Assembly: GCA_013335095.1 (NCBI GenBank) | Contig: JAAXWF010000001.1 | Location: 22,797-86,796 of the forward strand | Direction: 5' to 3' | Source of the DNA: a candidate division WWE3 bacterium | GTDB taxonomy: Bacteria; Patescibacteriota; 4484-211; GCA-002791395 | DNA length: 64,000 bases | Part shown: positions 5,154 through 23,096 of the stretch, one piece after another | How positions within the stretch are numbered: the stretch's first letter is position 1 | How the letters are laid out: each line of letters opens with the position of its first letter | Notes under the pieces: model-generated | The model's input: only the letters and a program-made list of their open reading frames with translations | The model's database searches: none | Told to the model about the DNA's origin: nothing | Program-made: the position numbers and the translations under genes

Positions 5154-5507
5154 TTACCAGCGATTTCCGCCGCCTCGATTATATCCACCACCATTTCGGT
5201 TTCCACCATTCCGGTTTCCGCCACCTCGATTACCACCGCCTCGATTTCCTCCTCGATCCTCCATAGGACGAGCTTCATTAACAACTAATGTTCGACCTTC
5301 GATCTCATAATTGTTGAAACGACTAATCGCTGCTGCTGCGTGTTCATCATTCGCCATTTCGACGAATCCAAAGCCTTTGCTTCGTCCCATTTCACGATCA
5401 ATAATGATGTTTACGGTGTCGACTTGGCCAGCTTGCTGAAACAGCGCTTCGAGGTCGCGTTCGGTCATTGAGTATGGTAATCCACCTACAAATAATTTTT
5501 TTGCCAT
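5154..5507 (-). CDS. RRM-type RNA-binding protein with glycine-rich C-terminus (paralog 1)
   Basis: RNP-1 KGFGFVEM and RNP-2 LFVGGL; GGNRGGG repeats; ggaggtg RBS. Confidence 0.85.
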   Translation of the reverse strand: MAKKLFVGGLPYSMTERDLEALFQQAGQVDTVNIIIDREMGRSKGFGFVEMANDEHAAAAISRFNNYEIEGRTLVVNEARPMEDRGGNRGGGNRGGGNRNGGNRNGGGYNRGGGNRW

Positions 5508-5650
5508 TGTAATCACCTCCGATTCTGATTTTGACTTGTTAATATGGAAATAGTTAAAAAACAAAAGGGCAATACAAAAACGCCTTTTCCGATTAAAAAT
5601 TTACGCACATGCTGCCCTAAATCACGGGTGTGCGTATATTATACGCTATA
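5508..5650 (-). promoter_or_regulatory. Promoter (TATAAT) plus about 120-nt conserved 5' leader of RRM gene 1
   Basis: Minus strand reads gcgTATAATatacgcacacccgtgatttaggg; blocks shared with the RRM2 leader. Confidence 0.5.
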
Positions 5651-5741
5651 ATCGGGATATGTACACAGGTACAGTTGCAATCGGATCTCTATTTACTCAT
5701 TGACAGGCATCATTCAAGATCGCTAATCTTAAAATATCAAA

Positions 5742-6179: not shown

Positions 6180-6950
6180 TTACTTTTCTACCTTGACGAC
6201 GATATAGTCGCCGATTTCTCCCGACAAACCGTGTGAGACCGCGGTCTTAAGAAAATCCGCGATAGCGTCGGCATTAGTGCGACCGATGCCATGCATTCGC
6301 GGATTTGTATTCAACCGAGCTCGCATCGCCCCACACAGCTGGCCCCGCGACGCCTTCGGATCATAATACACCTCGATGTGAGGCTTTTCGATCCACCACA
6401 GGAGCCGATCGGCATGCTTCATCATCGCCAGCTGTGCAGCTACCTTTCGGAGCTGTTCGGGCGTGACTTGCAGAAACTTCATGAGTCCAGCCAGCTGGTC
6501 GAGACTCATCGAATCCTCGTGGCCAGCACATCGGGCGATAAACCCGAGTAGAACTGACGTCGGATGAACCTGCCGATCACACAGATGATGGAGCAAAAAC
6601 TCCATCGCCCCGGCGAGATCCCCCCATGCAGTATTGTAGCTATCAGGAATAATCCTGGCTGGGAGCTCGCCTTCGTCACGGACACCGGCAGTGGGTACAT
6701 ACTCAAACCCTAAGAAGTACTCCACGGTGGCCGTTGGTGCGGCCATGCTCAGAAAGATATCCTGAGGCGTGGGATGGGCTAAATACTGTGCCACAGCCTC
6801 AGCGTGGTCACGGACCTCAATGATGAGGACCCGGCGCCACCGATCCTTTTCCGAAACGAGGGCGTAAATCTCCTGAACAGTCGGTACTCGATCTCCTGGG
6901 AAAACGAGCACTAAAAATGGTGCTCGCTGCTCCGGATCATGTGTCGACAT
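6180..6950 (-). CDS. Hypothetical protein (high-GC); intact copy of the family that includes 7096-7828
   Basis: ORF 6180-6980; ATG 6950 with aggagg RBS. Confidence 0.55.
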   Translation of the reverse strand: MSTHDPEQRAPFLVLVFPGDRVPTVQEIYALVSEKDRWRRVLIIEVRDHAEAVAQYLAHPTPQDIFLSMAAPTATVEYFLGFEYVPTAGVRDEGELPARIIPDSYNTAWGDLAGAMEFLLHHLCDRQVHPTSVLLGFIARCAGHEDSMSLDQLAGLMKFLQVTPEQLRKVAAQLAMMKHADRLLWWIEKPHIEVYYDPKASRGQLCGAMRARLNTNPRMHGIGRTNADAIADFLKTAVSHGLSGEIGDYIVVKVEK

Positions 6951-7047
6951 ACGTCGCCTCCTGGTAAGTAAACCTTCCACAGCCGCTTAAAACGGTAGAC
7001 ACATTATAGTATTAAAGGGACATTTACGCAAACTATGGGATTTAACT

Positions 7048-7543: not shown

Positions 7544-7828
7544 TTAATAAACGTCAGTCGGATTCGATTCTGGTAGCGGAGTGAATCCGACAAAAACGCT
7601 TCGACACCGATCGGGAGCACTACGGCTCAAGAACATTCGCCACGGTGTACGCTCATTAATAAAATGGTCGATGGCGTCTTGCATTCCAGCGACTTGCCGG
7701 ATAATGATCCGCCGAAATCGCTCATCTTTATGGAGTAAATCCCGAACAGTTTCTTCGGTGGGAATGGGATCATCCCCGAAGACAAAAACGATAATAGGCG
7801 CATATCCTTCTGGGTTAATGCCGTTCAT
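7544..7828 (-). pseudogene. N-terminal-domain fragment of the same family (APIIVFVFGDDPIPT... resembles APFLVLVFPGDRVPT...)
   Basis: Stops after about 94 aa whereas the paralog continues; a degenerate terminator-repeat copy lies in the gap at 7503-7531. Confidence 0.4.
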
Positions 7829-9517: not shown

Positions 9518-11182
9518 ATGCGAAAAAAGAATTTACACGTTTCAAGTGACCTAATCATCTTGATTGGAGGTTTCTCAGCAAGCCTTATTGGTGTATTTCT
9601 TGTCGTCTCAGCTTTATTTCCTACCAGCAATAATTCAAATATATTGACCACTAAACTAACACAGACACAAGCGGCAAACAGTTTTACCGATACATTTGAT
9701 GGGAAACCGACATCACCACAACCATTTACCCAAATAGGACAAAGCACCTGGGATATAGCCATACAATCACGGAATCCAGACACGTGGGATACGTTAGTTC
9801 CATTCCAGATGATGCATGGACCTAACTGTGAACCACCACTTATGACTGGCGCGACAGCTCCATATGATCATCATGAATTAATGGTTCATGACTGGGATGG
9901 GAATTATGATAGTGCGGTATTTAAATGTGCCGACCATATCATGACCGGAATTTATGGAATTGGGCGATCTATTAATGATGGATATGCAATGATTGCATTA
10001 ACTCCTAATCAAATGGTTGATTTTACCAACGGACCCGCAACAATACGGTGGGATATGACGACGTTTAGAACAACTCAACGTGATTGGGTTGATGTGTGGA
10101 TCACGCCCTATGACGATAACCTCCAGTTACCATTTGATACAGGTGATGTAGATTTACAAGGAATGCCAATGAATACAGTGCACTTAACAATGACCGCACC
10201 GAATGATAATTCAAAAACAGGTTTCAAACCGACCATAATTATTAATGGACAAGATACCGGTGAATTTCAACAGTTTACCGGTGACTATGATTCATTTTTG
10301 GCCTATGAAGATTATTTACCATCAAAAGCAGGAGATCCAAAACGTCGTGATACGTTTGAAATTACCATAAGCAAAACTCATCTTAAAATGTGTATGCCTC
10401 AAGATACCACTGATAATGCTCCATCTGAGACACTGTGTTGGGTCGATAAGAATATCAAGTCATTACCATTCACAAAAGGGGTGGTTCAATTCGCCCATCA
10501 CTCGTATACACCAAATAAAGACTGCGATTTTTACACGCCCTTACCATGCGGTCCGGACACGTGGCATTGGGATAATATATCAATTTCACCTTCGGTACCA
10601 TTTACCATGATTAAAGCCGATCAAAGAGCGGTACGAGGCGAGACACAGGTTGTCACATTTACTCAATCGGCTCCGGCGAACGCTAAATTGCGCTTTAGTG
10701 CAATTGGATCAGTTCAACTCAGTTTTAATAACGGTTCTTTTCAGTCTGTTACAAACCAATCATCAACCTTATACCACTCAGATCATTTTGCTTCATATTT
10801 TGTAAATATCCCACAAGGGACATCAACAGTTCGGTTTAAATTATCCGGCTCAGAGGTTATGGCAAAAGATTTCGCGATTTGGTCACAAGCAGCGCCAACA
10901 GGGACAACTCCGACACCAATCATAACAACGGCTCCATCACCCACCACACAACCAACACGCACTCCAACCCCAACGATTACGGGAACGACTGTTCTAGGAG
11001 ATATTAACCGGGACCGTATCGTTAATGTATTAGATCTGGGAATACTTGTTGGACTGTATGGGCGTCAAACATCTAGTGATGTAGCAAATGTGAACTTGCA
11101 GCGATCTGATTTAAATGGAAATGGATTAATAGACATTTACGATATTGGAATCCTCTCGGCAAACTACGGTAAAACATACTAG
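9518..11182 (+). CDS. Secreted protein with Pro/Thr linker and C-terminal type-I dockerin module
   Basis: N-terminal signal anchor; PT-rich linker; duplicated Ca-binding segments DINRDRIVNVLD / DLNGNGLIDIYD. Confidence 0.6.
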   Translation: MRKKNLHVSSDLIILIGGFSASLIGVFLVVSALFPTSNNSNILTTKLTQTQAANSFTDTFDGKPTSPQPFTQIGQSTWDIAIQSRNPDTWDTLVPFQMMHGPNCEPPLMTGATAPYDHHELMVHDWDGNYDSAVFKCADHIMTGIYGIGRSINDGYAMIALTPNQMVDFTNGPATIRWDMTTFRTTQRDWVDVWITPYDDNLQLPFDTGDVDLQGMPMNTVHLTMTAPNDNSKTGFKPTIIINGQDTGEFQQFTGDYDSFLAYEDYLPSKAGDPKRRDTFEITISKTHLKMCMPQDTTDNAPSETLCWVDKNIKSLPFTKGVVQFAHHSYTPNKDCDFYTPLPCGPDTWHWDNISISPSVPFTMIKADQRAVRGETQVVTFTQSAPANAKLRFSAIGSVQLSFNNGSFQSVTNQSSTLYHSDHFASYFVNIPQGTSTVRFKLSGSEVMAKDFAIWSQAAPTGTTPTPIITTAPSPTTQPTRTPTPTITGTTVLGDINRDRIVNVLDLGILVGLYGRQTSSDVANVNLQRSDLNGNGLIDIYDIGILSANYGKTY

Positions 11183-11279: not shown

Positions 11280-11591
11280 TTACCAGCGATTTCCGCCGCC
11301 GTTATTGTAACCACCTTCGCGATTATCGCGATTTCCACGTGGTACCATTGGGCGAGCTTCGTTCACCTGAAGTTTTCGGCCACCGAGTTCATAACCATTA
11401 AACATGTTTATTGCATTCGCAGCTTCTTCATCAGATGACATTTCTACAAATCCGAACCCTTTACTGCGACCGGTTTCTCGATCAACAATAATTTGAACAG
11501 ATTGAATAGCGCCAGACTGTCCGAACAAGTCTTGTAATTCTTGTTCAGTAGTAGAGTAAGGTAATCCACCTACAAATAATTTTTTAGCCAT
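11280..11591 (-). CDS. RRM-type RNA-binding protein (paralog 2)
   Basis: KGFGFVEM RNP-1; aggaggtg RBS. Confidence 0.85.
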   Translation of the reverse strand: MAKKLFVGGLPYSTTEQELQDLFGQSGAIQSVQIIVDRETGRSKGFGFVEMSSDEEAANAINMFNGYELGGRKLQVNEARPMVPRGNRDNREGGYNNGGGNRW

Positions 11592-11745
11592 TCATAAAAC
11601 ACCTCCTACTCTGATTTTAGTTTGTTGAGTAACGCTGGAAATACTTAAGAAACACGAAGTTAGCACATGCAACTCTGGAAACTTAACCCCACACGCTTAT
11701 ACTCCCTAAATCACAGGGTGTAGACATATTATACCATCTATTTGG
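11592..11745 (-). promoter_or_regulatory. Promoter (TATAAT) plus about 130-nt conserved 5' leader of RRM gene 2
   Basis: Minus strand reads gGTATAATatgtctacaccctgtgatttaggg; shared gcatgtgc, tatttcca and aaaatcaga blocks. Confidence 0.5.
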
Positions 11746-11763
11746 CTTAAGATACACAAATCA

Positions 11764-12153
11764 TTACTTTCCTAGATTCATTAATTGCTTTAAATGTGAT
11801 TGAATGGATTCTTTTGGACTATAGTCCGACAAGATTGACGGCTCATGAGCCAGTGCATTAATGCCTTTAACGTTATAGCGCGGAACTAAATGCCAATGGA
11901 CCTGATTAACCTCATCCATATACATTAAATAGACCTTTTCGACAGCTAAAGCACCAAGCATAGCCGTACGTACAGAATTCACCATATCCATCAAGTACTC
12001 ATAGTCGCTTCGAGTTAGGAGATGGAGGTCAGCTACACTGTTATTCCAAACAATAACCGTATGCCCTGGAGTAAGGGGAAATGAAGCTAGGCACACATAT
12101 AATTTGTCATCTTGGTAAATTAAACTTTGTGGATCTGGCGCGGGTAAATTCAC
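11764..12153 (-). CDS. HIT-family hydrolase
   Basis: Histidine triad VHWHLVP. Confidence 0.7.
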   Translation of the reverse strand: MNLPAPDPQSLIYQDDKLYVCLASFPLTPGHTVIVWNNSVADLHLLTRSDYEYLMDMVNSVRTAMLGALAVEKVYLMYMDEVNQVHWHLVPRYNVKGINALAHEPSILSDYSPKESIQSHLKQLMNLGK

Positions 12154-12169
12154 GTACGTATCATAACAA

Positions 12170-12212
12170 AAAAGGCGCGAGGATGTTACTCCCCGCGCGT
12201 GTATTAACCCAC
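12170..12212 (-). terminator. Terminator hairpin (gcgcgagg...ccccgcgc); minus-strand fold has a G-U pair, plus-strand has a C-A mismatch
   Basis: Same motif repeated at 13049-13083. Confidence 0.55.
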
Positions 12213-12229
12213 CGACACCAGCCAGACCC

Positions 12230-12895
12230 CTAGATCAGCTCGGTATCTTTGACCATCGAGAGGGCTGCCTGCGCCATGTTACCTAATCGAACCCGATCGA
12301 TATCGACGACAGGATAAAAACACCGATGGCTAATGTATTGGGCAAGAGGTTCGTCCCGATAGAAGGCGCGCCGCTCAACCCACACCCCCGAGATCCTGTC
12401 ATATATCTTGATAATATACGACCGGCTTACGTGTAACATCTCCGTTGGTTCGTAGCAGATCGCTAGACCATCCAACTGAGGGCGAATATAACTCAGGTCC
12501 CCCCCAGCTAAAGCAAACGTTACCATATCCAGAATCAGGTCCTTACCTGCGCGCAGTCGTGGAGACACGGTGACGCCACCAGCCAAGACCTGATCATAGA
12601 CCGCGCGACGCGATTGCCGAATCAGTTGCCGAAGATCGCTCGGCAGCTGATCCCGGTGAATAAGGACCTCAGTTATGGCCAATGCCGTAGCATACCGTTC
12701 ACCTTCGGGGATTTCGCCATTGAAGCTTATTGACCCCAAGCCTAATAGCCCCAATGAAATTGTCACCTTCCCATGAGAGGTGATCAAGCAGACCATCCAT
12801 TGATGGTTGTCCGTTGGTTGAGTTGCCCTACTGACCTCGACCTGACCGAAGATCGTTTCGATCGTGAGCTTATTGTCCGAAGTTACTGCGTCCAC
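12230..12895 (-). CDS. Hypothetical protein (high-GC), tandem paralog A
   Basis: 221 aa; alignable throughout with 13099-13797. Confidence 0.55.
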   Translation of the reverse strand: MDAVTSDNKLTIETIFGQVEVSRATQPTDNHQWMVCLITSHGKVTISLGLLGLGSISFNGEIPEGERYATALAITEVLIHRDQLPSDLRQLIRQSRRAVYDQVLAGGVTVSPRLRAGKDLILDMVTFALAGGDLSYIRPQLDGLAICYEPTEMLHVSRSYIIKIYDRISGVWVERRAFYRDEPLAQYISHRCFYPVVDIDRVRLGNMAQAALSMVKDTELI

Positions 12896-13048
12896 GAAAT
12901 GTCCTCCTCAAGTGATGTCGAACACACGACTCCCTATTCGGTCGATATCCCAGACGTTAAATCTGTCCTCGAATCGAGGCAGATAAGTATCTAATGTTTT
13001 AGGTACTTGGCTGCCTTGACTGACTTTTTCAAAATAATAGAGTAAAAA

Positions 13049-13083
13049 AAGGCGCGAGGATGTGAATCCCCGCGCCCGCGTAC
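13049..13083 (-). terminator. Second copy of the gcgcgagg/ccccgcgc terminator
   Basis: aaaaaaaggcgcgaggatgtgaatccccgcgc. Confidence 0.55.
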
Positions 13084-13098
13084 CCGACTTGAACCGAC

Positions 13099-13797
13099 TT
13101 ACTTCTGGACCTGGTCCAGCCAGTTGTCGTAGACCACGAACCCCGTCTGCCCGATCATCGGATAGAGAAGGCTAGCGCTGGCCACAATCGTCCTGGCCAA
13201 CCCTTCCGGATCGTCCCCCAACGTCGCCGTCGGGAAAAACCGGAGGAGGTCAATCTGAGGATGCCCGTCTGTTAGATGGACAATTGTCTGCTCGGCATAC
13301 ACGCCGAGGTGACCGTCCAGCTCCCGCATCATGTAAGCACGAGTGATCCGGAGAGCCTCGCGATAGATAAAGCTAATCTCCACCCCGCCGTTCACCATCC
13401 GAACCACGCTCCCGCCACGCATGGCAAAGGCTATCATGTCGGCAGCGAGCTCAGTACAGGCGGTGGTCTGCCGCGACCACAGCACCTCTTTGCCGACGAC
13501 ATTATGGTACATTTCGTACCGATGGCGGCGCAGAGCGGCTTCGAGCTCCTGGGGCACCTGCGGGTGCCCGATCAGCAGTTCGATCAGCGAGAGGGTCATG
13601 GCCCTCTTCTCATTGGCAGGCTCGCCGCCGGGCCGGCTCATCAAGCCATCCCGATCGATGCTGAACAGGAACCCGCCAGCATAGTCTGCCCAGATCTCGT
13701 ACCGCCTATCATCCAGGCCGGTCCGGGGCGGGATCTCGATCCGGACGTTGCCGAACGCGGTCTCGATCACGATCTGGTTAGCCTTAGTCGTGGGCAT
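13099..13797 (-). CDS. Hypothetical protein (high-GC), tandem paralog B
   Basis: 232 aa. Confidence 0.55.
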   Translation of the reverse strand: MPTTKANQIVIETAFGNVRIEIPPRTGLDDRRYEIWADYAGGFLFSIDRDGLMSRPGGEPANEKRAMTLSLIELLIGHPQVPQELEAALRRHRYEMYHNVVGKEVLWSRQTTACTELAADMIAFAMRGGSVVRMVNGGVEISFIYREALRITRAYMMRELDGHLGVYAEQTIVHLTDGHPQIDLLRFFPTATLGDDPEGLARTIVASASLLYPMIGQTGFVVYDNWLDQVQK

Positions 13798-13875
13798 AAG
13801 ACCCTCCTAGTAGTAAATACGATGCCAGCACAGCTGGCGCCATAAGTCCTCAACAGGACAACGAATTGCCCTGGC

Positions 13876-13926
13876 CCGTGGGGGCACGAAATCTGTTAAA
13901 CGTTAACCGATTACGCACCCCCACGG
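13876..13926. promoter_or_regulatory. 9-bp inverted repeat (ccgtggggg ... cccccacgg) with 33-nt spacer in the leader region of 13099-13797
   Basis: Seen directly; lies 80-130 nt upstream of the start codon at 13797. Confidence 0.3.
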
Positions 13927-14028
13927 TATCTTGTGTAAAAGTACTTTGGAGCATAAAAGCCCCTTATGTATTAAGTATATCAAATATAGGCTTATAGTAA
14001 AAGCGGCGGTTATGTAAAATATAAAAGC

Positions 14029-14586
14029 TTATTCAGCACGTAGTATTCCGATTTGGGTTTTCCCATCGCTGATTAAATCGACAAGCTCAGATCGACTCGG
14101 TGAAAAATAAAAGACTTCGCCAGGAACGATATTAGGTATGACCTGATGCCTTTTATTCATATACACAAAATTATTCAATTTGGGTTCGATAAGAGTAAAT
14201 CCACATTTTTTATAAAATGGTAATAATTCAGTCTCACAGAATCCTAACGCTGGCTTATTAGTTTTTAATAAGTACTTTTTCACACTCGACATCAACAAAC
14301 GACCCAAGCCTTTTCCCTTTTGGATAGCAATCACAGTCGAAATACATATAATCTTTTCTTTTTTACCTTGAACTACGATTGGTATCCTCCGCAGCTTGCC
14401 GAAAGCTAAAAGTCGATGATTAAACTTTGAATACAACAAAAAAAATAAAGATGTTGAAACCTCGGGATCGTTCTTATTCAACGTGGTCCGGGAGTGAAAT
14501 TCGCGTACACGATACGTATTAATAATTTCAAGCGTTGATCCTGATAAAGCACGACCTTGCATCTTTTGGAGGGTATATTGTGACAT
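14029..14586 (-). CDS. GNAT-family N-acetyltransferase (low-GC)
   Basis: Motif A QKGKGLGRLLM; start uncertain (14586 or 14604). Confidence 0.6.
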   Translation of the reverse strand: MSQYTLQKMQGRALSGSTLEIINTYRVREFHSRTTLNKNDPEVSTSLFFLLYSKFNHRLLAFGKLRRIPIVVQGKKEKIICISTVIAIQKGKGLGRLLMSSVKKYLLKTNKPALGFCETELLPFYKKCGFTLIEPKLNNFVYMNKRHQVIPNIVPGEVFYFSPSRSELVDLISDGKTQIGILRAE

Positions 14587-14607
14587 TAGTACGAATTGTA
14601 ACAAAAA

Positions 14608-14637
14608 AACCGCCGTAGGTTACCCCACGGCGGCATA
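14608..14637 (-). terminator. Hairpin ccgccgtagg/cccacggcgg with U-tract for minus gene 14656-15036
   Basis: Inverted repeat preceded by A7 on plus strand. Confidence 0.55.
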
Positions 14638-14655
14638 AGCACTCTCTCGAAAGAC

Positions 14656-15036
14656 CTACTCGGAGTACCGAGCGACCAGCTCGGCAATCGGATCAGTCCC
14701 CAACTCAGGAGGACATTTGGCCTCGTCGAAGTAAAGCTTGACCTGGCGTAGAATCGCCAGAGTAAGCCGCATCGCGGCCATTGGCATAGGTTGGCCAACG
14801 TCCTTGTTAGTAACCGTGACCATCCGCCCCAACGGGCCATTACCACGCGGATGGACGGTGACCTCAATTGACCCGTCAGACCAAATCCAGAATTCACCTT
14901 CTCGAATCGCGATGGCTAGGTGAGCCAAGGCGATAAAGTCGAACGAGATGCCGTACTGCATAGAGACTTCGCCAAACTCACGGGCCGCTTGAGCGGCATT
15001 TACGCGAGTAGTGAACATCTCCTCCACTCTAGGCAT
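14656..15036 (-). CDS. Hypothetical protein (high-GC)
   Basis: 126 aa; adjacent to the upstream gene (operon). Confidence 0.5.
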   Translation of the reverse strand: MPRVEEMFTTRVNAAQAAREFGEVSMQYGISFDFIALAHLAIAIREGEFWIWSDGSIEVTVHPRGNGPLGRMVTVTNKDVGQPMPMAAMRLTLAILRQVKLYFDEAKCPPELGTDPIAELVARYSE

Positions 15037-15048
15037 GCCATGACCTCC

Positions 15049-15399
15049 TTAGAACTTTGCGAACCACTGTCCGCTAAATCGAATCTCCGGATACCCTTCG
15101 ATCACCAGCCACTGGCGGTGTCCGACAGCAACCAGAAGCGGTTGCCAGCTCTCATCCGGCAAACACGCTGGACTGTGGTACTCGCCATCATGATGATGAC
15201 AAGCAGGCTCATCGACAGGAACCGGAATGACCTCCCTCACCCGAAATGGGCCGCACCCATAGCTCCGAAGGTGGAGCTCTTCCATCAGATTGGTATGGGA
15301 CTCGCGATCCCAAACGACCAGATCACCAGGAGCAAATAGCTCCCGCTCCATTGCCGCAGTCTGCGGGTCAGTAGAAACCGCCACAAGCGTGGGACTCAT
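15049..15399 (-). CDS. Hypothetical Cys/His-rich protein (CHHHDGEYHSPAC)
   Basis: ATG 15399 with aaggaggg RBS. Confidence 0.5.
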   Translation of the reverse strand: MSPTLVAVSTDPQTAAMERELFAPGDLVVWDRESHTNLMEELHLRSYGCGPFRVREVIPVPVDEPACHHHDGEYHSPACLPDESWQPLLVAVGHRQWLVIEGYPEIRFSGQWFAKF

Positions 15400-15630
15400 C
15401 GTACCCTCCTTGCATGGCTCAATTCCTCGCCATCCCGGCGACACAATAGGTGCGTATCATTTTAATAGATTCCCGACAATAAATCAAACACTATAGGTAA
15501 CCGCATCAAGATGGAGTCGCAGCAGCTTTATTTGTTATAAATACATATTTTTGATACAATCGGTCCGTCCTATAAGACAATTCAGGAGTCTGAAAAGCTG
15601 CTGAATTTGGCTGGTTTCAAAGGAGGGTCA

Positions 15631-17838
15631 ATGGCCGCCAAACAGGAAGTCCTAAACCTGGAGCGATTCTCAGGGGCCGCACGGAATCTACTCCGCGATG
15701 CCCTAATAATCGCCTCCGAGGCCGAACACAAGTCCTACGTCAGCTTCGAGCATCTGCTACTGGCGATTCTACAATCGACAGACGCGAATGCATACCGGCT
15801 GCTGGTGGACGCCGGATGTGAACCGGAACGACTCCGGGCAACTATCCGGGCTACGGCTGTTCGAACGCCTCAGGTTAATGGGGTGCTACTCACACACGGT
15901 GAGCTATCGCTGCCGCTTAGTACTGATGCCGCCCGCATTATCGAACGATCTCGTGAAGCTGCATCAAAATTCAGTGCAGCTAAAATCGGATCGGATCATC
16001 TGCTACTGGCGATGTTCGAGGTTGACGAAAGTCGAATCGTCCTCGTCGCAGCCGGCGTTCGCGTTGAAACGATCAAAAGCCTCGTGCTTGAGATCCACCA
16101 AAGCGGACACACCGAAAAAGGTGATGCGGCAATCATCGGCCTGGAAGAGCTTGGCACTCAAGCAGGCCAACTCGAGCCGATCATCAACGTGACTATCGTT
16201 GACGCACTCTGGACACTGTGGACTCATCGTCGCTTGCCGGGGGTCCTATTATTCGCCGAGAGTGGCGCGCCAGCTTGGGATCAAATCCTTGGTCTGGTAC
16301 GCCGACTAAGCTCAACCAAGGAGCCAAAGTTTAGCCTCATCGCGATTTCGCCCGATGCATATCTGAGTAACCCGATCCTGACGATTCAGGCGGCGATTCG
16401 GCGTGCATTGGATGAAAAAGCGATCTTGATCCTTCCCGATATTGGCCAATATGTAGGTCAAGTCGAAGACGGATTCACGACGGCAGTAAGCTTGGTTCGT
16501 GAGGCAGTGCAAAACAGCGGACTCAAGATAGTTGGGATCGCTGAACCGGCCTATCGATCAGTATTATCGAAGGATCGTCTGTTTAGTCGAATGAGGTTTA
16601 CAGACGTCGAAGCCACAACGATAGATCAAACGATCGCCTATATTACAAGGCTGATCGAGACTCTTGTTGATGGCCGAATTACGTTTGCTGAGGATACCCT
16701 CAAGCAAATTGTAGAACTCGCGGATCAGTATCTCCCGCGAGAGTTACCTGGCTGCGCGATTGACCTAACCTACGACGTAGTAGCCGCAGCCGAACTCGTC
16801 TTCGATCAGCAGCAAACTGAGTCGGTCCAGATTGATGGGAATCTCGTACTAGCTGTGCTAGAGAGGCTCACCAACCTTCCACTCGGTAAGCTGATTGGTA
16901 CAGAAAAAGAGAGACTGGCGCAGATGGAGGAAATCATCCATCGTCGCTACGTTAATCAAAAAGATGCAGTGACCGCACTGGCGCGCTCGATAAGGCGCAG
17001 TCGCACTGCATTCCGGGATAAACGACGCCCAATCGGCACGTTTCTATTTCTCGGAACAACCGGAACCGGCAAAACAGAGCTCACCAAAGCTCTGGCCGAA
17101 TTTCTGTTTGGGTCGGACGAAGCCCTGGTGGGCATCGATATGAACGAGTTTGCTGAACCACATACCGTGTCAGCACTACTTGGTTCACCCGTCGGTTATG
17201 AAGGCCACAGTCAGTCTACCCCACTGGATGTGGTTGCCCAACGACCATTTATGGTAGTCCGGTTCGATGAGATCGAGAAGGCACACGACGACGTGCTGCT
17301 TGCTCTGCTCGGACTGATGGAAAACGGATATATTACAACTCGGAGTGGACGAAGGATTAACTTCCGACACACGGTTGTGATTATGACGTCAAACGTAGGG
17401 TCGGAATACCTACGAGGAGAGGATCCAGGATCTGAAAAAGACCAAGCGCTCGCAGCGCTTAAGGATCGTTTTCGCCCGGAGTTCCTCAATAGGGTCGATC
17501 GAACGATCGTCTTTTCACCCTTTAGCAGTGACGATCTGCAGAAGGTTGCCGGGATGTTCCTGGCTTCAACGGTAAAAGAAGCCGCTGAAGAAGGGATCAA
17601 CCTGGTAGTCGCCGCCACGACCTTGCAGCAACTTGTAGCCAACATGGCTCAGGAGTGCAAACAATACGGCGCACGACCACTTCGTCGAGTCATTGATGTA
17701 CTCGAAGAGGTGATTGTCGATGGTATCGTTGCTGGCATATTCAAACCAGGACAAACCGTCGAGGTTCGATTCATGGATAATAAGTTGGAACCGGTCATCG
17801 TATCGGATACATCAGAGGAGGGAGCAGATCATGTCTGA
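15631..17838 (+). CDS. ClpC/ClpB-like AAA+ protein: two Clp_N repeats, degenerate NBD1 (Walker A replaced by ESGAPAWD; Walker B DE replaced by PD), intact NBD2 (GTTGTGKTEL, FDEIEKAH, GARPLRR)
   Basis: aaggaggg RBS; ATG 15631; motif comparison with ClpC/ClpB. Confidence 0.7.
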   Translation: MAAKQEVLNLERFSGAARNLLRDALIIASEAEHKSYVSFEHLLLAILQSTDANAYRLLVDAGCEPERLRATIRATAVRTPQVNGVLLTHGELSLPLSTDAARIIERSREAASKFSAAKIGSDHLLLAMFEVDESRIVLVAAGVRVETIKSLVLEIHQSGHTEKGDAAIIGLEELGTQAGQLEPIINVTIVDALWTLWTHRRLPGVLLFAESGAPAWDQILGLVRRLSSTKEPKFSLIAISPDAYLSNPILTIQAAIRRALDEKAILILPDIGQYVGQVEDGFTTAVSLVREAVQNSGLKIVGIAEPAYRSVLSKDRLFSRMRFTDVEATTIDQTIAYITRLIETLVDGRITFAEDTLKQIVELADQYLPRELPGCAIDLTYDVVAAAELVFDQQQTESVQIDGNLVLAVLERLTNLPLGKLIGTEKERLAQMEEIIHRRYVNQKDAVTALARSIRRSRTAFRDKRRPIGTFLFLGTTGTGKTELTKALAEFLFGSDEALVGIDMNEFAEPHTVSALLGSPVGYEGHSQSTPLDVVAQRPFMVVRFDEIEKAHDDVLLALLGLMENGYITTRSGRRINFRHTVVIMTSNVGSEYLRGEDPGSEKDQALAALKDRFRPEFLNRVDRTIVFSPFSSDDLQKVAGMFLASTVKEAAEEGINLVVAATTLQQLVANMAQECKQYGARPLRRVIDVLEEVIVDGIVAGIFKPGQTVEVRFMDNKLEPVIVSDTSEEGADHV

Positions 17839-18772
17839 CACGCCGGCGCCCGATACAACCGCTGCGGCTGAGAAACCGCAGTTGACAGCCGACGCAATCG
17901 TTACAATGATTGGTGGCTGGATTAGTCAGGGTCATTCAAGCGCCCGGATCTCACAGTACCTGGCAGTACGGGGTATCACCACAGACCTGGTCAGACAAGC
18001 CTGTGCGATGATTCGGCAGGCCGTAACCGAGCAAACCACTCAGGTAGCCGAACTGCGCACCCAGATGCAGGCTGATCTGGATACCGAAGAGTCTACGTAT
18101 ACCAGTGCTCGGGCTGTTCAGCAAGGTCTGCTGGATCAGGCTCAACAGATCATGGCACAAGCGAATGCGGTTCTCGCATTCTACGGTGCCCAGAGCGAAG
18201 CACAGCCTGCGGCGGCTGAGGGTGTGACGCAGGAAACAGCCGTAGAACCGGTGGAGGAAAAGCCCCGCTGGCCAAGTTTCCTCGGCAATATCTTCGAGGC
18301 GTTGTCGGTGGATGATGGACAAGCCGCGGTAGAAGCTGCTTCACTACAGACTGAGGCGAACACGGATATTGCCCAGCCAAGCACTCCATCGTTGGATGAT
18401 CCATATGTACCACTTCAGGTCATATTGGTCATAGCGGATCTATCGATCCAGACGACAAGGCGATGGGATAGTCTGCGGGCTTTATCGGTAGATGAAGGAC
18501 GAACGCCGGACCTAGATCTTGCCGATCTACAGACGACGTTTGAAGTTCTAAAGCCGCAGTTTGAGCGCGGCCGACTTATGGCGCAGCGCCAGGCACAGCA
18601 GAGTCAGTCGGCTATTGGAGTGTATGAAGCGCATTGGTCGCAAGTACGTGCGCAGAATGCACAAAACGTAGCTGAGCTCGACCAGAGGGCGGCGACACTC
18701 ACGAGCTTTAACCAAGCCTGTGACGCAGTGGAGACAATGATCGCCACAATTGAGGCTTCGACCCAGGCCTAA
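17831..18772 (+). CDS. Coiled-coil protein, translationally coupled to the ClpC-like gene (ATGTCTGA overlap)
   Basis: gaggaggg RBS inside the upstream gene; 313 aa, Q/A-rich heptad-like regions. Confidence 0.55.
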   Translation: MSDTPAPDTTAAAEKPQLTADAIVTMIGGWISQGHSSARISQYLAVRGITTDLVRQACAMIRQAVTEQTTQVAELRTQMQADLDTEESTYTSARAVQQGLLDQAQQIMAQANAVLAFYGAQSEAQPAAAEGVTQETAVEPVEEKPRWPSFLGNIFEALSVDDGQAAVEAASLQTEANTDIAQPSTPSLDDPYVPLQVILVIADLSIQTTRRWDSLRALSVDEGRTPDLDLADLQTTFEVLKPQFERGRLMAQRQAQQSQSAIGVYEAHWSQVRAQNAQNVAELDQRAATLTSFNQACDAVETMIATIEASTQA

Positions 18773-18792
18773 TTTTAAACATGGGTTAAAAA

Positions 18793-18835
18793 AATAACCG
18801 CCGGGTGGTACCACAATGGTACCCACCGGCGGTTT
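18793..18835. terminator. Perfect bidirectional terminator (accgccgggtggtacc acaa tggtacccaccggcggt) with A-tract and T-tract
   Basis: 16-bp perfect inverted repeat between convergent operons. Confidence 0.85.
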
Positions 18836-18863
18836 TTCATATCTCTCTAACTCTAATTACTAC

Positions 18864-19946
18864 CTATCTTTTTTCCCCTCCCTTACGAACTACCGCCGAC
18901 CGAGTACCCGAGGTACGCCGCTGGCTAGTCGGTTGTGGGACCGTTGAGGTCAGAGCCCCTCCGGCCAATCCGACATTAGCAACGTCGGCAGCGTTTACAG
19001 GTCCAGCTTCACCACCTGCCATCCACGCCGAGACGGTATTCTGGGCTCTTTCGGTTGCCAGAAGACTTTCAACAGTCCTTCCAAGCTCTTCGGCGGCTGC
19101 AGCCTGGTTCAGAGACTGAACCCCCGCAGACATCGCACTGACTTCAGCCTGAACACGTTCAAACTGTTGCGAAATAGTCAGCCGGGCCTGATCGAACTGA
19201 GCTTCGACCAGGTTGATCATCCGACCAAGCGCTTCGGGGCTGTTAACCCCCTGCTGAACGGCTTCAAGGTGACGTTGGGCAGCCGCATGAGCGGCGCTCA
19301 AACTATTGAGCAGTTCGGCGTCACCCCTGGCGTCTTCCATCTCAGCCAAGAGTCGCCGGACTTCACGTTCGGCGAGCTCTACGGCACTGTTATCGCCGAT
19401 AACCACCGCGAACAGCTGCCCCATGAAGTTCAGCCGTCGCTGGTACAACCGAACTGAAAGCTCCAACAGCTTATCGATGTCGGGCATAATCAGTTGGCGA
19501 GCTGAATCTCCCAAGCCTTCGGAGTCGAACAGTCGATCAAGTTGCTCAACCTGAGCAAAGACTTGATGTAGCTGTTCACGCCGGGCTTCAAATTCCCGCT
19601 TAGTATACGGCGGGTTTTGTGAGTACCGATATTGCTCATAAAGGCCGATCAGACGACCTTCGAGCTCATCCTGTAGCCCTTCAACTTCGCGCAGGATCTC
19701 ATCGGACTCAGTCACGTTCAGGAGGTCATACAGAGACTTCCCGACATACGCGACCAGAGTAATCGATGCCCCTGTTAGAACAGCAGGAATTGCTGCAGCA
19801 GGGGCAATGGCCAGTAGCCCTAAGCCGGATACGAAAGACAATAGTCCTCCGCCAATGGCAATCGTCAGATTCCGTTCGTCTAGAAAAGCTTCCCCAAACT
19901 CACCCAACGAATTCCGTAAGTCGTCGACCAGACGATTCCCGCTCAT
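18864..19946 (-). CDS. Membrane-anchored coiled-coil protein (two N-terminal TM helices; XpaC/TelA-like architecture, family assignment tentative)
   Basis: Hydrophobic segments at aa 27-70, then long helical region; aaaggag RBS. Confidence 0.5.
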   Translation of the reverse strand: MSGNRLVDDLRNSLGEFGEAFLDERNLTIAIGGGLLSFVSGLGLLAIAPAAAIPAVLTGASITLVAYVGKSLYDLLNVTESDEILREVEGLQDELEGRLIGLYEQYRYSQNPPYTKREFEARREQLHQVFAQVEQLDRLFDSEGLGDSARQLIMPDIDKLLELSVRLYQRRLNFMGQLFAVVIGDNSAVELAEREVRRLLAEMEDARGDAELLNSLSAAHAAAQRHLEAVQQGVNSPEALGRMINLVEAQFDQARLTISQQFERVQAEVSAMSAGVQSLNQAAAAEELGRTVESLLATERAQNTVSAWMAGGEAGPVNAADVANVGLAGGALTSTVPQPTSQRRTSGTRSAVVRKGGEKR

Positions 19947-20104
19947 CGAGCGCTCCTTTCCATCGTTACGATCGATCCAACTAGTTCTTGGTTTCTGAAC
20001 TAGGATAAAGCCAAGTATACTGCATGAATTTATCTTAATTAAGAAAATGGGCCGACTCTCAATTAAGAGAGACGGCCCAACATTACGCTATGTTAGCGTG
20101 CGAT

Positions 20105-21961
20105 TTATCGAGCCCCTGGCAGCACCAGTTGGCAGCCAAAGAATCGGTCCTGCCGCCTGATATTTTCATCAGCGGCGTTCATGTGGCTCGGATCCGACGG
20201 AATCACCGGCTTAAACGCGATCCGCTCGACCGGAACGTTCCGGTTTGAAAGCAGATCACGGATAGCCGGAATTCGAACGTCCGTCAGAAACGCCATCAAT
20301 CCTTCGGCGGTATCCCCGGGAGGCCAGGCAGTGCCGACCTCACAGAGCATCAAGACATCGACCGAAGTTGCCTTAAGGGCAGGCTTGATCGAATTATCTA
20401 CGTACGCATCGAAGCGTCCGACCGACTCTTCGACCAACGTGCCTTCGTTGGCGTTGAATTCAAAGAACTCGCGAGGGAACGTTGCCACAACGTCCTCAGG
20501 CTTGATCCCCGTCACGTCGACCGGATTGACCTGAGGTCGCCGATCGAGCGTGAACTCTTTGGCCGTAAACAACGCCCGGGCATCGGTAAGTAGCTCGGGG
20601 TGGCGCTCAGCGGTTCCCAGTACGAACTGGGGATTAACGACCGTCATCGGGTCGAACTGCTGAACTGGTTTACCACCATACCCCCACAGTTCGCTTGTGA
20701 ATGCGATCTGGGTTGCGATCACTCCGCGCTGGCCATTGGCCTGGGTGGTGCGCTGGTCATTCATCAGGTTGACGTTCGACCGGAGCGTCGCTTGCGCGAT
20801 ACCGTTCATGTAGTCGCGCATAGCTGCATCGGGAGACATTCCCGAATCAATCAAGGCCTGGATACCGGTCCAGCCATCGTGGCTCTGATCCCACTCAGAA
20901 ATCATGGTGGCGGCCCCGGCGGGGTCGCTGAGCATGAAGTTCAGGGCATCGAACCAGGCGTCATGAAACGCCTGCACCAGAGCCGGGTTTTCCCCGACAA
21001 TCTGGTTCGAGAAGATCACGCCATCGATAAGGCTTGGAAGGTTTTCGCTTCCGATGACCTTATAGCCGATATCAACATCCTGGCCATTTCCGTCGTAGAT
21101 GAAAACGGTTTTGCCGTCATCGCGAAGGTTAATGACCGGGATCCAGCCGACCATCACGTTGGTCTGGCCCGCCTGATAGGCTTCCAGAGCCTGTTCAGCC
21201 CGGTTGATATCAGGAAGCATCATGCGAACATTCGGATCCGCGGCATTCTCGCGACCAGCGTAATAAAACGTGATCGTTAGAAGCTCACTCACCGAATTCG
21301 CACCTGCCGCAATCGGCTTGCCAATGATCCCCTGGAGCGTTTGATTTGGCTCCCGGGAAACCATGAAATCCGATCCGCGGCTCATGGAGATGATCAACGT
21401 GTTGACGCCGTACGCCCCTTGCAGGGCAAAGGTGTCGACTGTGGTTAGACCACAGTTGAACTCTCCCGTACGCAGGTAATCAGCCTGCTGATTCTCGTCA
21501 AAGTCATTCTGGTCCAGATTGGGGCCAGAAGCCATGGGCACCAGCTCAAGCTCGAAGTTGTGCTTCGCAGCGAATTGCTGAGCCATGAGGATGGTTGGGT
21601 AGTAGCTCGGGTAGTTAGCCACGAAGCATTTCAGTGTACCCAACGAGCCACTTGCTGACGTTGTTCCGGCTTGATTCACTGGGGTTGCCGCTGCAGCAGC
21701 CGTTGGCTGAATTTGCGAGCTCCCTGCCGTTGCGTTATTCGGATTTACCGTCGGCGCGCCCCCCCCGAAGGGAACGACTTGCGTGACGGAAACCGAAGTA
21801 GGTGCGGTTGATGCACTGCTATTGCCCCTGATCAGCAAGGTACGAATCCCCAAACCGATCACGGTGAGCAGCATCAGGACCGCAAGGATAGCAATACCGA
21901 CTCGAGTTGGACTAAGACGCCGACGTCGGCGCAATGAACTACCATCGGTTGGTGAACTCAC
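20105..21961 (-). CDS. Membrane-anchored protein with NMT1/SsuA-like periplasmic substrate-binding domain and C-terminal extension of unknown function
   Basis: GTG start 21961 with AGGAGG RBS; Arg-rich N-terminus plus TM; SBP-like region YPSYYPT...GWIPVINLRDDG. Confidence 0.5.
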   Translation of the reverse strand: MSSPTDGSSLRRRRRLSPTRVGIAILAVLMLLTVIGLGIRTLLIRGNSSASTAPTSVSVTQVVPFGGGAPTVNPNNATAGSSQIQPTAAAAATPVNQAGTTSASGSLGTLKCFVANYPSYYPTILMAQQFAAKHNFELELVPMASGPNLDQNDFDENQQADYLRTGEFNCGLTTVDTFALQGAYGVNTLIISMSRGSDFMVSREPNQTLQGIIGKPIAAGANSVSELLTITFYYAGRENAADPNVRMMLPDINRAEQALEAYQAGQTNVMVGWIPVINLRDDGKTVFIYDGNGQDVDIGYKVIGSENLPSLIDGVIFSNQIVGENPALVQAFHDAWFDALNFMLSDPAGAATMISEWDQSHDGWTGIQALIDSGMSPDAAMRDYMNGIAQATLRSNVNLMNDQRTTQANGQRGVIATQIAFTSELWGYGGKPVQQFDPMTVVNPQFVLGTAERHPELLTDARALFTAKEFTLDRRPQVNPVDVTGIKPEDVVATFPREFFEFNANEGTLVEESVGRFDAYVDNSIKPALKATSVDVLMLCEVGTAWPPGDTAEGLMAFLTDVRIPAIRDLLSNRNVPVERIAFKPVIPSDPSHMNAADENIRRQDRFFGCQLVLPGAR

Positions 21962-22026
21962 AGAGCACCTCCTAAAAGTAAGAGGGACTGCCGCCCATTT
22001 GCGGCAGCCCACTTTCCGATTTAGAA

Positions 22027-22788
22027 CTACTTCTCCGGCGTCAGCCGGGTCGTAGCAGCACCATCAGCAGTAGCAGGTCCAGCCTGGCCGGCTTTCTTCT
22101 TGGCGATGAGTGCCGTAAGCTCCGGACTCATCTCACCCAGAGAGAGCGCGCCACCAGGGGCGAGGCCTGCTTCCATAACCGCGCTCGACATGCGAAGCCG
22201 GGCATCAGCGTCACGCCGCCCGTCATCGGCACGATCCTGAAGCTCTTCGAGCTCCCAAAAGTCGTTGCCCTGACCAATGCCGGCCATCTGTTCCTGCAGT
22301 GAAGCAAGACCAGCTTTAGCCTCATTCGCAGCGATGCGGATCTTGTAGCCGTTGGCTTGAGCTGCCTTAAGACGAGCTGCGTTGATATTACGCAACATAA
22401 TCGCCTTAATGTTGGCTTGAGAGGCAACAGACTCGAGGTCTCTCAGAAGCCCCTCAACGATTGGCTGATGCATCTGGATCTCCTGATCCAGGGCCATTGC
22501 TGTTTCTAGGTCTTCATTTTCGACCGCTTTCTCGCGCCGTGCCTTGAGCTGATCGAGGTACTGAACCTGACGGGCCACATCCTCGGCGAAAGCCTCCTGG
22601 CTTTTGCTCAGCTCAACGCCAGCCCAATAAGCCGAATCCTCGGCTCCCTTGGCCTTGTCGCGTACGCTCTCAAGGAGGTCATCGGTGCTTTCATTGCGAA
22701 GCCACCGCCCAACCTCCCGCCAAAATCGATTCCAAAGCTCGCCGATCACAAATCCCGGACCATTCCGACGAGGAGAACGATTAGACAT
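22027..22788 (-). CDS. PspA/IM30 (Vipp1/LiaH) family protein
   Basis: Coiled-coil with C-terminal PspA-like FWELEELQDRADD segment; ATG 22788 with ggagga RBS. Confidence 0.5.
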   Translation of the reverse strand: MSNRSPRRNGPGFVIGELWNRFWREVGRWLRNESTDDLLESVRDKAKGAEDSAYWAGVELSKSQEAFAEDVARQVQYLDQLKARREKAVENEDLETAMALDQEIQMHQPIVEGLLRDLESVASQANIKAIMLRNINAARLKAAQANGYKIRIAANEAKAGLASLQEQMAGIGQGNDFWELEELQDRADDGRRDADARLRMSSAVMEAGLAPGGALSLGEMSPELTALIAKKKAGQAGPATADGAATTRLTPEK

Positions 22789-23096
22789 ATGAGTATCCTC
22801 CGTAGAACTACTACACCTGATACAGGCTCCGATGCGAATCCACCGAAAGGTCAATCCATTAGCTGGGATTGCTCCCCTTTCCGCTAAACGTGAAATACAC
22901 GCTTACACATTCAGTAAGCGATTTACTTTTACCATATTTTGCTCCTAACGTCAAAACATAACAAAACACTATAAGACGAGATTGCTTATAAATATTCGTT
23001 TTCATCCTTAAATACTTATCAAGCTTTACTAAAAGGCTTATACTTATAAACGCCAATACATCGGCATCGTGGAACGCACGACTATAGGAGGCGTCA

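Follow-up and report, generated by a model that had tools for sequence, protein, structure and literature searches.

Candidate cis-acting RNA leaders of two paralogous RRM genes in a candidate division WWE3 bacterium

Bacterial proteins with a single RRM domain are widespread and are present in nearly all reduced genomes of the Candidate Phyla Radiation. To our knowledge, their RNA targets and their regulation are almost unknown outside the cyanobacteria. The DNA considered here, referred to as the window, is a 64-kb stretch from a bacterium of candidate division WWE3 (Patescibacteria) that carries two paralogous RRM genes, named rbp1 and rbp2. Each of them is preceded by a leader, the presumed 5' untranslated region (5' UTR) of its transcript, and both leaders contain the same ordered sequence blocks. 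These leaders, their conservation, their predicted structure and their possible role in setting the output of the RRM proteins are the subject of this analysis. The genes, promoters and leaders, with lengths in nucleotides (nt) or amino acids (aa), are placed as follows.

5154–5507, minus strand: rbp1 gene, 117 aa; RRM_1 domain (Pfam E 5e-23) and a GGNR-repeat tail ending in NRW
5638–5665, minus strand: rbp1 promoter, −35 box TGTACA at 5665–5660, 16-nt spacer, −10 box TATAAT at 5643–5638; promoter scan, 10 of 12 matches
5508–5631, minus strand: rbp1 leader (5' UTR), 124 nt, from the predicted start A5631 to the base preceding the ATG
11280–11591, minus strand: rbp2 gene, 103 aa; RRM_1 domain (Pfam E 1.6e-25)
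11728–11736, minus strand: rbp2 extended −10 box TGgTATAAT, read from the sequence
11592–11721, minus strand: rbp2 leader (5' UTR), 130 nt from the predicted start A11721

Both proteins consist of one RRM_1 domain followed by a glycine- and arginine-rich tail with an NRW end, and the genes are separated by only 6 kb. The proteins are identical to NCBI entries, and the entry for rbp1 is labelled 'RNA-binding protein [candidate division WWE3 bacterium]'. An in-frame TTG extension of rbp1 (open reading frame, ORF, 5154–5564) was rejected as the true start; the ATG is taken as the start because a Shine–Dalgarno (SD) sequence lies 8 nt before it in every copy of the leader. The TATAAT box and the leader of about 120–130 nt that the first-pass annotation of this DNA had described before both genes are present as claimed: TATAAT can be read at both, and the leaders measure 124 and 130 nt. 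The rbp2 promoter, which has no good −35 box, is not called by a simple −35/−10 scan. Its extended form of the −10 box, TGnTATAAT, also occurs at three homologous loci, L083, L085 and L122 (TGaTATAAT in the last).

The blocks shared by the two leaders are a 5' box, which begins at the predicted +1 in both, an interior TATTTCCA block and a 3' box that contains the SD.

5615–5631, minus strand: rbp1 5' box, ACACCCGTGATTTAGGG (RNA ACACCCGUGAUUUAGGG); C-rich terminus and UGAUUU, 5' strand of the predicted long-range helix
11704–11721, minus strand: rbp2 5' box, ACACCCTGTGATTTAGGG (RNA ACACCCUGUGAUUUAGGG); found by pattern search
5545–5552, minus strand: rbp1 TATTTCCA block, within a U-rich stretch
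11636–11643, minus strand: rbp2 TATTTCCA block
5514–5532, minus strand: rbp1 3' box, AAAAUCAGAAUCGGAGGUG, with the SD GGAGG at 5520–5516; 3' strand of the predicted long-range helix
11600–11618, minus strand: rbp2 3' box, AAAAUCAGAGUAGGAGGUG, with the SD GGAGG at 11606–11602

Between rbp1 and rbp2, identity is complete in the 5' box (17/17) and in the TATTTCCA block (8/8) and reaches 17/19 in the 3' box. The counterparts of the rbp1 TATTTCCA block are TATTTCCA in rbp2, GATTTCCA in L085, TTATTCCA in L083 and ATTTTCCCA in L122. It lies in a U-rich stretch, GUUUYUUAA...UAUUUCCA, that all leader copies contain and that would suit a single-strand-binding RRM protein. The 3' box pattern, AAAATCAGA(A/G)T(C/A)GGAGGTG, has two matches in the window, against 0.07 expected by chance. 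The first-pass annotation had listed four shared blocks in the same order and a g/t substitution in the 5' box. Three of the blocks hold, and the two 5' boxes differ by a 1-nt insertion and by no substitution. The remaining block, gcatgtgc, is found at 5612–5605 in rbp1 and at 11670–11663 in rbp2, 2 nt and 33 nt downstream of the 5' box, respectively; its predicted structural roles differ, and it is missing in L085. It was rejected as a conserved block and is probably a chance match, because its placement is inconsistent and a shared 8-mer between two interiors of about 90 nt is not surprising.

Comparison with other sequence classes indicates how the leaders evolve. Between rbp1 and rbp2, the leaders are 56.5% identical; identity falls to 40% in the RRM domain when third codon positions are compared, and to 41% for the aligned 120 nt upstream of the −10 box. 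For rbp2 and its orthologue at locus L085, the corresponding values are 78% for the leader, 52% for third codon positions and 43% upstream of the promoter. In every pair compared, the leader is more conserved than the synonymous sites and the promoter-upstream DNA, and the leaders are under purifying selection. Since third positions and upstream DNA are near saturation and the boxes recur in homologues, the similarity reflects selection and not recent duplication, as the first-pass annotation had proposed.

Homologous leaders are few. Among approximately 5.8 billion clustered proteins, the only close homologues are P0002 (75% to rbp1) and P0003 (79% to rbp2). The loci L083/L084 and L085/L086 were retrieved through protein identity alone, not through the leader. 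L083 is the rbp1 orthologue and L085 the rbp2 orthologue; they stem from other samples and have the promoter type, the boxes and the box order of the window. The HIT-family gene upstream of rbp2 (11764–12153) is also kept at L085. In the close copies, the spacing between the −10 box and GUGAUUU is constant at 12–13 nt. A distant locus, L122, encodes a 96-aa protein with 63% identity, and its leader is related in the 3' half (GATTTTCCCAATCAAAC...GGAGGTGATTACAA; covariance model score 18.6 bits, E 0.04–0.07). The leader family in reachable public data thus comprises four close copies and one distant copy. The boxes occur at none of 80 loci from a protein-based scan of genome contigs (best identity 65%), and the 28 loci from a metagenome scan by SD and N-terminal-codon pattern all have leaders of other families. 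The next-nearest proteins (P0121, P0123, P0124, P0237, P0238, P0066 and P0004) have different leaders, and scans of viral contigs gave chance matches only, with both boxes together in none. A mini-ORF of three codons, ATGAATGGCTAA (M-N-G-stop; 11584–11595, minus strand), overlaps the rbp2 start codon out of frame; it is probably incidental because it is absent from the orthologue L085.

RRM genes are the only genes that the leader precedes. Its covariance model, R2, matches rbp1 at 5505–5633 (126 bits) and rbp2 at 11589–11722 (127 bits), scores obtained with both sequences in the build set of the model. Patterns with up to three mismatches, an nhmmer profile and R2 itself detect no further copy in the window, so the search for the boxes elsewhere, which had been suggested alongside the original description, yielded none upstream of other genes.

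The conserved boxes are complementary to each other. UGAUUU in the 5' box matches AAAUCA in the 3' box, and the C-rich terminus (CACC, CCCU, CCUG) matches the G-rich SD segment, so that the first 17 nt or so of the predicted transcript can pair with AAAUCA and the SD segment 100–130 nt downstream. The minimum free energy (MFE) folds of all four leaders (rbp1, rbp2, L083 and L085) at 37 °C contain this long-range closing helix, as does the RNAalifold consensus of the four. In rbp2, the MFE pairs are ACACC/GGUGU, CU/AG, UGAUUU/AAAUCA and GG/CU. A duplex of the first 22 nt with the 29 nt ending at the SD has a predicted free energy (dG) of −12.9 to −16.0 kcal/mol, with shuffle p values of 0.009–0.022 (rbp1: −15.1 kcal/mol, p 0.0085). 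When all 49–76 windows of a leader are compared, none pairs better with the SD-proximal segment than the 5' segment does, and this holds for all four leaders. For transcripts that begin at the exact predicted +1 and extend 30 nt into the gene, the probability (P) of the core helix is 0.5–0.98 in rbp2, L083 and L085 (0.55–0.88 in rbp2). Pairing of the 5'-terminal CACC or CCCC with part of GGAGGUG is predicted in all four leaders (P 0.5–0.9). What stands out in the leaders is that their 5' terminus is predicted to pair with the SD-proximal box in a position-specific way, and such complementarity between conserved boxes favours a candidate cis element at the RNA level.

In the distant leader L122, a comparable helix seems to be formed by a different sequence. 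Its 5'-terminal bases are predicted to pair with the segment before the SD as CAUUC/GAAUG, compared with GAUUU/AAAUC in the close copies, and its SD lies in a local GUCACCU/AGGUGAU hairpin. When L122 is added to the alignment, both sides change at four of the 12 closing-helix pairs, 92% of the cells are paired and none of 500 shuffles does equally well, values that apply to an alignment fitted to the structure.

Several observations weigh against a structured regulatory leader. The RNAalifold check proposed with the original description recovers the helix and no compensatory support: the four close copies show no variation at any closing-helix pair and are thus neutral on pairing. The compensatory changes come entirely from L122, a marginal homologue in a structure-fitted alignment. 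In rbp1, the core UGAUUU/AAAUCA helix has a P of only 0.03 when the transcript begins at the exact predicted start, while the terminal CACC/GGUG pairing is still at about 0.55. The start itself, taken as the seventh base after the −10 box, is inferred and not mapped. The folding energy of the whole leader is unremarkable compared with shuffled sequences (z −0.2 to +0.8). The SD is not buried beyond expectation either, its mean probability of being unpaired being 0.38 in rbp1 and 0.52 in rbp2, against 0.29 and 0.33 when the upstream part is shuffled. Finally, the search for further copies covered 64 kb of a contig of approximately 536 kb. SD sequestration as the defining feature or mechanism is unsupported, with SD accessibility no lower than in shuffled controls; several other families of RRM leaders expose their SD more than random sequence would.

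Within the rbp1 leader, the most robust element of both the centroid fold and the folds of the nascent transcript is an internal hairpin.

5556–5617, minus strand: rbp1 internal hairpin GGGCAG...UUGCCC (5617–5567) followed by UUUUGUUUUUU (5566–5556); terminator-like, centroid fold

This hairpin raises the possibility of a transcription attenuator, in which transcription would stop prematurely at a hairpin and U-tract if neither an alternative fold nor the RRM protein intervened. The immediate succession of the rbp1 stem and UUUUGUUUUUU fits such a scheme, as does the equivalent in L083, where GGGGC...GCCCC precedes UUGUCUUU directly and the base of the helix has G-C in place of A-U. The GGG of the 5' box is, moreover, shared between a local CCC/GGG hairpin and the rbp1 GGGCAG...UUGCCC stem. 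However, the stem encloses a branched loop of 40–70 nt, which is atypical of intrinsic terminators, and a terminator scan does not call the rbp1 hairpin. Terminator-like hairpins with a U-tract are not present in rbp2 or L085, which have only a weak A/U-rich hairpin before GUGUUUCUU, so that the arrangement is not family-wide, unlike the 5' and 3' boxes. Attenuation is accordingly very improbable as the function of the family. An operator at the DNA level deserves similarly little credence. It would have the 5' box (+1 to +17) bind a repressor of both genes, leaving the 3' box as context of the ribosome-binding site. In its favour are the fixed distance of the 5' box from the −10 box, its short imperfect palindrome (CCCT-N7-AGGG) and the invariance of the helix pairs in the four close copies, the last being what a protein-recognised sequence would present. 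Yet the palindrome arms comprise only 2–3 bp in L083, and an operator predicts neither the complementarity of the 5' and 3' boxes nor the AAAUCA upstream of the SD nor the conserved interior; in L122, the sequence differs and the pairing is kept. An absence of any function, with residual similarity left by the duplication that formed the paralogues, would suit genes just 6 kb apart. It is scarcely credible given boxes that are fully or almost fully identical next to third positions and promoter-upstream DNA near saturation, and the persistence of the boxes in orthologues from other samples.

Two further explanations concern RNA structure. The leader stem-loops of ompA and aprE are the model for 5'-terminal helices that stabilise mRNA, and the closing helix could likewise be a constitutive stabiliser that shields the 5' terminus from 5'-end-dependent RNases, with no feedback or signal. 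In most leaders, pairing of the initial 2–6 nt of the predicted transcript exceeds a P of 0.9, the 12–13 nt between the −10 box and the 5' box are conserved, and unrelated leaders of other patescibacterial RRM genes (type P, described below) also start with a closing helix at the predicted start. A short 5' hairpin would be enough for this purpose, however. The SD-adjacent 3' partner, the U-rich block and the constraint over about 120 nt are left unexplained, and so is the link of several unrelated structured leader types to RRM genes; stabilisation alone is unlikely. Slightly less likely still is a protein-independent RNA thermosensor, either cspA-like or masking the SD, which would tune the translation of cold-type RNA chaperones. 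The first-pass annotation had suggested a cold- or thermo-sensing site, and the glycine-rich RRM proteins of cyanobacteria are indeed cold-induced (PMC12232666). The predicted ensembles include pairing between the 5' terminus and a portion of the SD, and the MFE fold of rbp1 at 37 °C differs from that at 20 or 5 °C. Nevertheless, rbp1 is the only leader whose predicted fold changes; those of rbp2, L083 and L085 are the same at 37, 20 and 5 °C. A helix that masks the SD would become tighter as the temperature falls and so, barring a kinetic trap, would act opposite to what a cold-induced gene needs; nor does the masking exceed that of shuffled controls. The cspA family (RF01766) and the thermometer families are unmatched at E up to 10, and the predictions give the suggestion no support.

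The reading we prefer, with a confidence that we would put at about even, is that both stretches are 5' untranslated leaders forming a small, lineage-restricted family of cis-acting RNAs, which would control RRM-protein output post-transcriptionally by means of a 5'-terminal helix. Transcription would start about 7 nt after a TATAAT box, usually of the extended TGnTATAAT type. The long-range helix would then close the leader, pair its 5' terminus and abut or partly cover the SD, leaving an interior of variable hairpins and the conserved U-rich stretch. The output of the RRM proteins might in this way be set at translation initiation, at 5'-end-dependent mRNA decay or at both. The likeliest effectors are the RRM proteins themselves, which may bind the leader and exert negative feedback, and such feedback would be shared by rbp1 and rbp2 because both paralogues carry the same boxes. 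Autoregulation is the most plausible function of the leaders, although our confidence in this effector is lower than in the element. The start site, the formation of the helix in vivo, the effector and the direction of regulation are all inferred. The earlier proposal of a cis-regulatory RNA keeps its footing in selection, complementarity and the association with RRM genes; covariation adds little to it. Taken alone, the element of the window represents a small, lineage-restricted family with modest structural support. A leader that selection has kept before both paralogues nevertheless offers something definite to test, as a possible binding site and a possible means of feedback control, in bacteria beyond the reach of cultivation.

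No family of Rfam 15 matches the leaders, whether the whole window is searched at the gathering threshold, nine loci at E up to 1 or the isolated leaders at E up to 10. What surfaces is noise, on the wrong strand or far below threshold. In the literature, no account of patescibacterial RRM-gene leaders was found. The one described motif upstream of bacterial RRM genes is Chlorobi-RRM (Weinberg et al. 2010, PMC2864571). It is a conserved candidate cis-regulatory RNA of a single lineage, lies in the presumed 5' UTR of RRM genes and has a function that is not experimentally established. The window leaders have the corresponding location, between the predicted promoter and the start codon of RRM_1 genes. 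However, the phylum is another one (Patescibacteria/WWE3), the element here extends over the leader in full, with the SD as part of it, and the Chlorobi-RRM covariance model (RF01697) matches neither leader at E up to 10.

The 5' UTRs of cyanobacterial rbp genes, such as rbpA1, offer another parallel at the level of description. They are likewise conserved leaders of glycine-rich single-RRM genes and are implicated in post-transcriptional or low-temperature control, whereas the predicted folds of the window leaders indicate no temperature dependence. That the rbpA1 5' UTR has a role when transcripts accumulate at low temperature is stated in the title of Ehira et al. 2005, as it appears in the reference list of PMC4152365. 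Rfam 15 contains no curated model of this 5' UTR. In Synechocystis, rbp1 mRNA rises upon deletion of rbp2 and rbp3 (PMC12232666), which fits cross-feedback among RRM paralogues. The cspA 5' UTR (RF01766) and the autoregulation of Csp proteins present a long structured leader before the gene of a small nucleic-acid chaperone, and the logic proposed here, feedback combined with control of mRNA stability and translation, is shared with them. The window proteins have the RRM fold and not the cold-shock domain, however, RF01766 is unmatched, and no consistent temperature switch is predicted. The operators of L1, S15 and ThrRS, too, are leaders of genes for RNA-binding proteins; they lie over or next to the SD, so that the encoded protein can repress its own synthesis. 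They imitate rRNA or tRNA targets that are known, whereas the RRM proteins of the window have no known natural target. The leader thus resembles Chlorobi-RRM, cspA and the autoregulatory leaders in its proposed working and is a member of none of them.

Other patescibacterial RRM genes also have long, structured upstream regions, with different sequences. A widespread pattern, type P, has the form GUAAG-UUUYC...[variable hairpin]...GGUCGNCUUAC with the 3' consensus RGGUCGNCUUAC. It is found at approximately 37 of the 82 loci, in Parcubacteria-type genomes, and ends 20–30 nt before the AUG. Examples, to which some 30 further loci (L001–L080, L115 and L116) can be added, are listed here.

L001, 2897–2972: type P leader
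L009, 198–271: type P leader
L034, 2893–2972: type P leader
L053, 2820–2905: type P leader

The closing helix of type P covaries at three of its six pairs (UA/AU/CG, UA/CG and AU/GC). A covariance model of it, R1, has 31 matches in 610 kb, all directly upstream of an RRM gene and on its strand. It matches nothing in the window, L083 or L085, and type P has no match in Rfam 15. Model R2, in turn, leaves the type P loci unmatched, and there are no significant covariance model matches between the window leader and the metagenome families. The window leader was therefore rejected as a homologue of type P and of those families, the searches being negative in both directions. The window leader and type P occupy the same place, which runs from the predicted transcript start nearly as far as the start codon, and have in common a closing helix at the 5' terminus and their absence from Rfam. 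They have no sequence similarity, and type P, unlike the window leader, does not reach an SD and displays clear covariation. Type P looks like an undescribed RNA motif; common, covarying and absent from Rfam, it points to new RNA families worth curating.

The SD-bearing RRM leader families from metagenomes have closing helices of 5' and 3' arms of their own. A test for such helices, run with guessed starts and noisy overall, is significant in L090, L098/L101, L100, L103 and L108. In the family of L087, L091, L098, L100, L101, L106, L107 and L112, the 3' arm GUUUGUCAGAG can pair with the 5' arm CUUCUUUUGAUAACU or with UGACAAAC. The pairing with UGACAAAC, just after the SD, is the RNAalifold consensus (8 pairs). 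These leaders may represent a two-state switch around the ribosome-binding site, a possibility suggested by the predicted folds. Further RRM leader families can be discerned by eye: L090, L096 and L103; L099, L105, L111 and L113; and L024, L062, L063 and L114. Examples of such families are of the types CUUCAGAAAAG...UUUUCUGAAAG, AACUUGUUUCUGCUAG...CUAGAAAGAACAGUU and CAG-UUUCCUUCCUCU...AGAAAAAAGGAAUA. One metagenomic contig, L128, carries tandem RRM genes (55–330 and 601–954), the second of which follows a leader some 220 nt long that is again of a different type.

Structured leaders look like a general property of the RRM gene family, of which the window leader would be a lineage-specific instance. 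The occurrence of several unrelated structured leaders on one gene family suggests that tight post-transcriptional control is generally required. A broader and more doubtful proposition, which we offer only tentatively, is that patescibacterial single-RRM proteins regulate themselves through fast-evolving leaders of one design, in which a helix joining the 5' terminus to a stretch that immediately precedes or overlaps the ribosome-binding region would serve as a platform for the protein. Under that proposition, the WWE3 leader, type P and the SD-bearing metagenome families would be lineage-specific versions of one solution and, if it is true, would provide the first RNA targets to be defined for bacterial RRM proteins beyond the cyanobacteria.

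The remaining observations concern the surroundings of the two genes. Between them, on the plus strand, 9518–11182 encodes a secreted-looking protein of 554 aa; at its C-terminus, a dockerin-type repeat falls slightly short of the Pfam cut-off (E 2e-4). The G+C content is 0.51–0.54 at 12001–24000 and 0.49 at 1–4 kb, against 0.39–0.41 over most of the window, and the higher-GC region at 12–24 kb, which adjoins the rbp2 locus, may be of foreign origin or a genomic island. The two ORFs that were scanned from the higher-GC stretches near the rbp genes, 6180–6980 and 12230–12895, have no Pfam match. They belong to similar ORF pairs on the minus strand, 6180–6980 with 7544–7828 and 12230–12895 with 13099–13797, which may be paralogous families.

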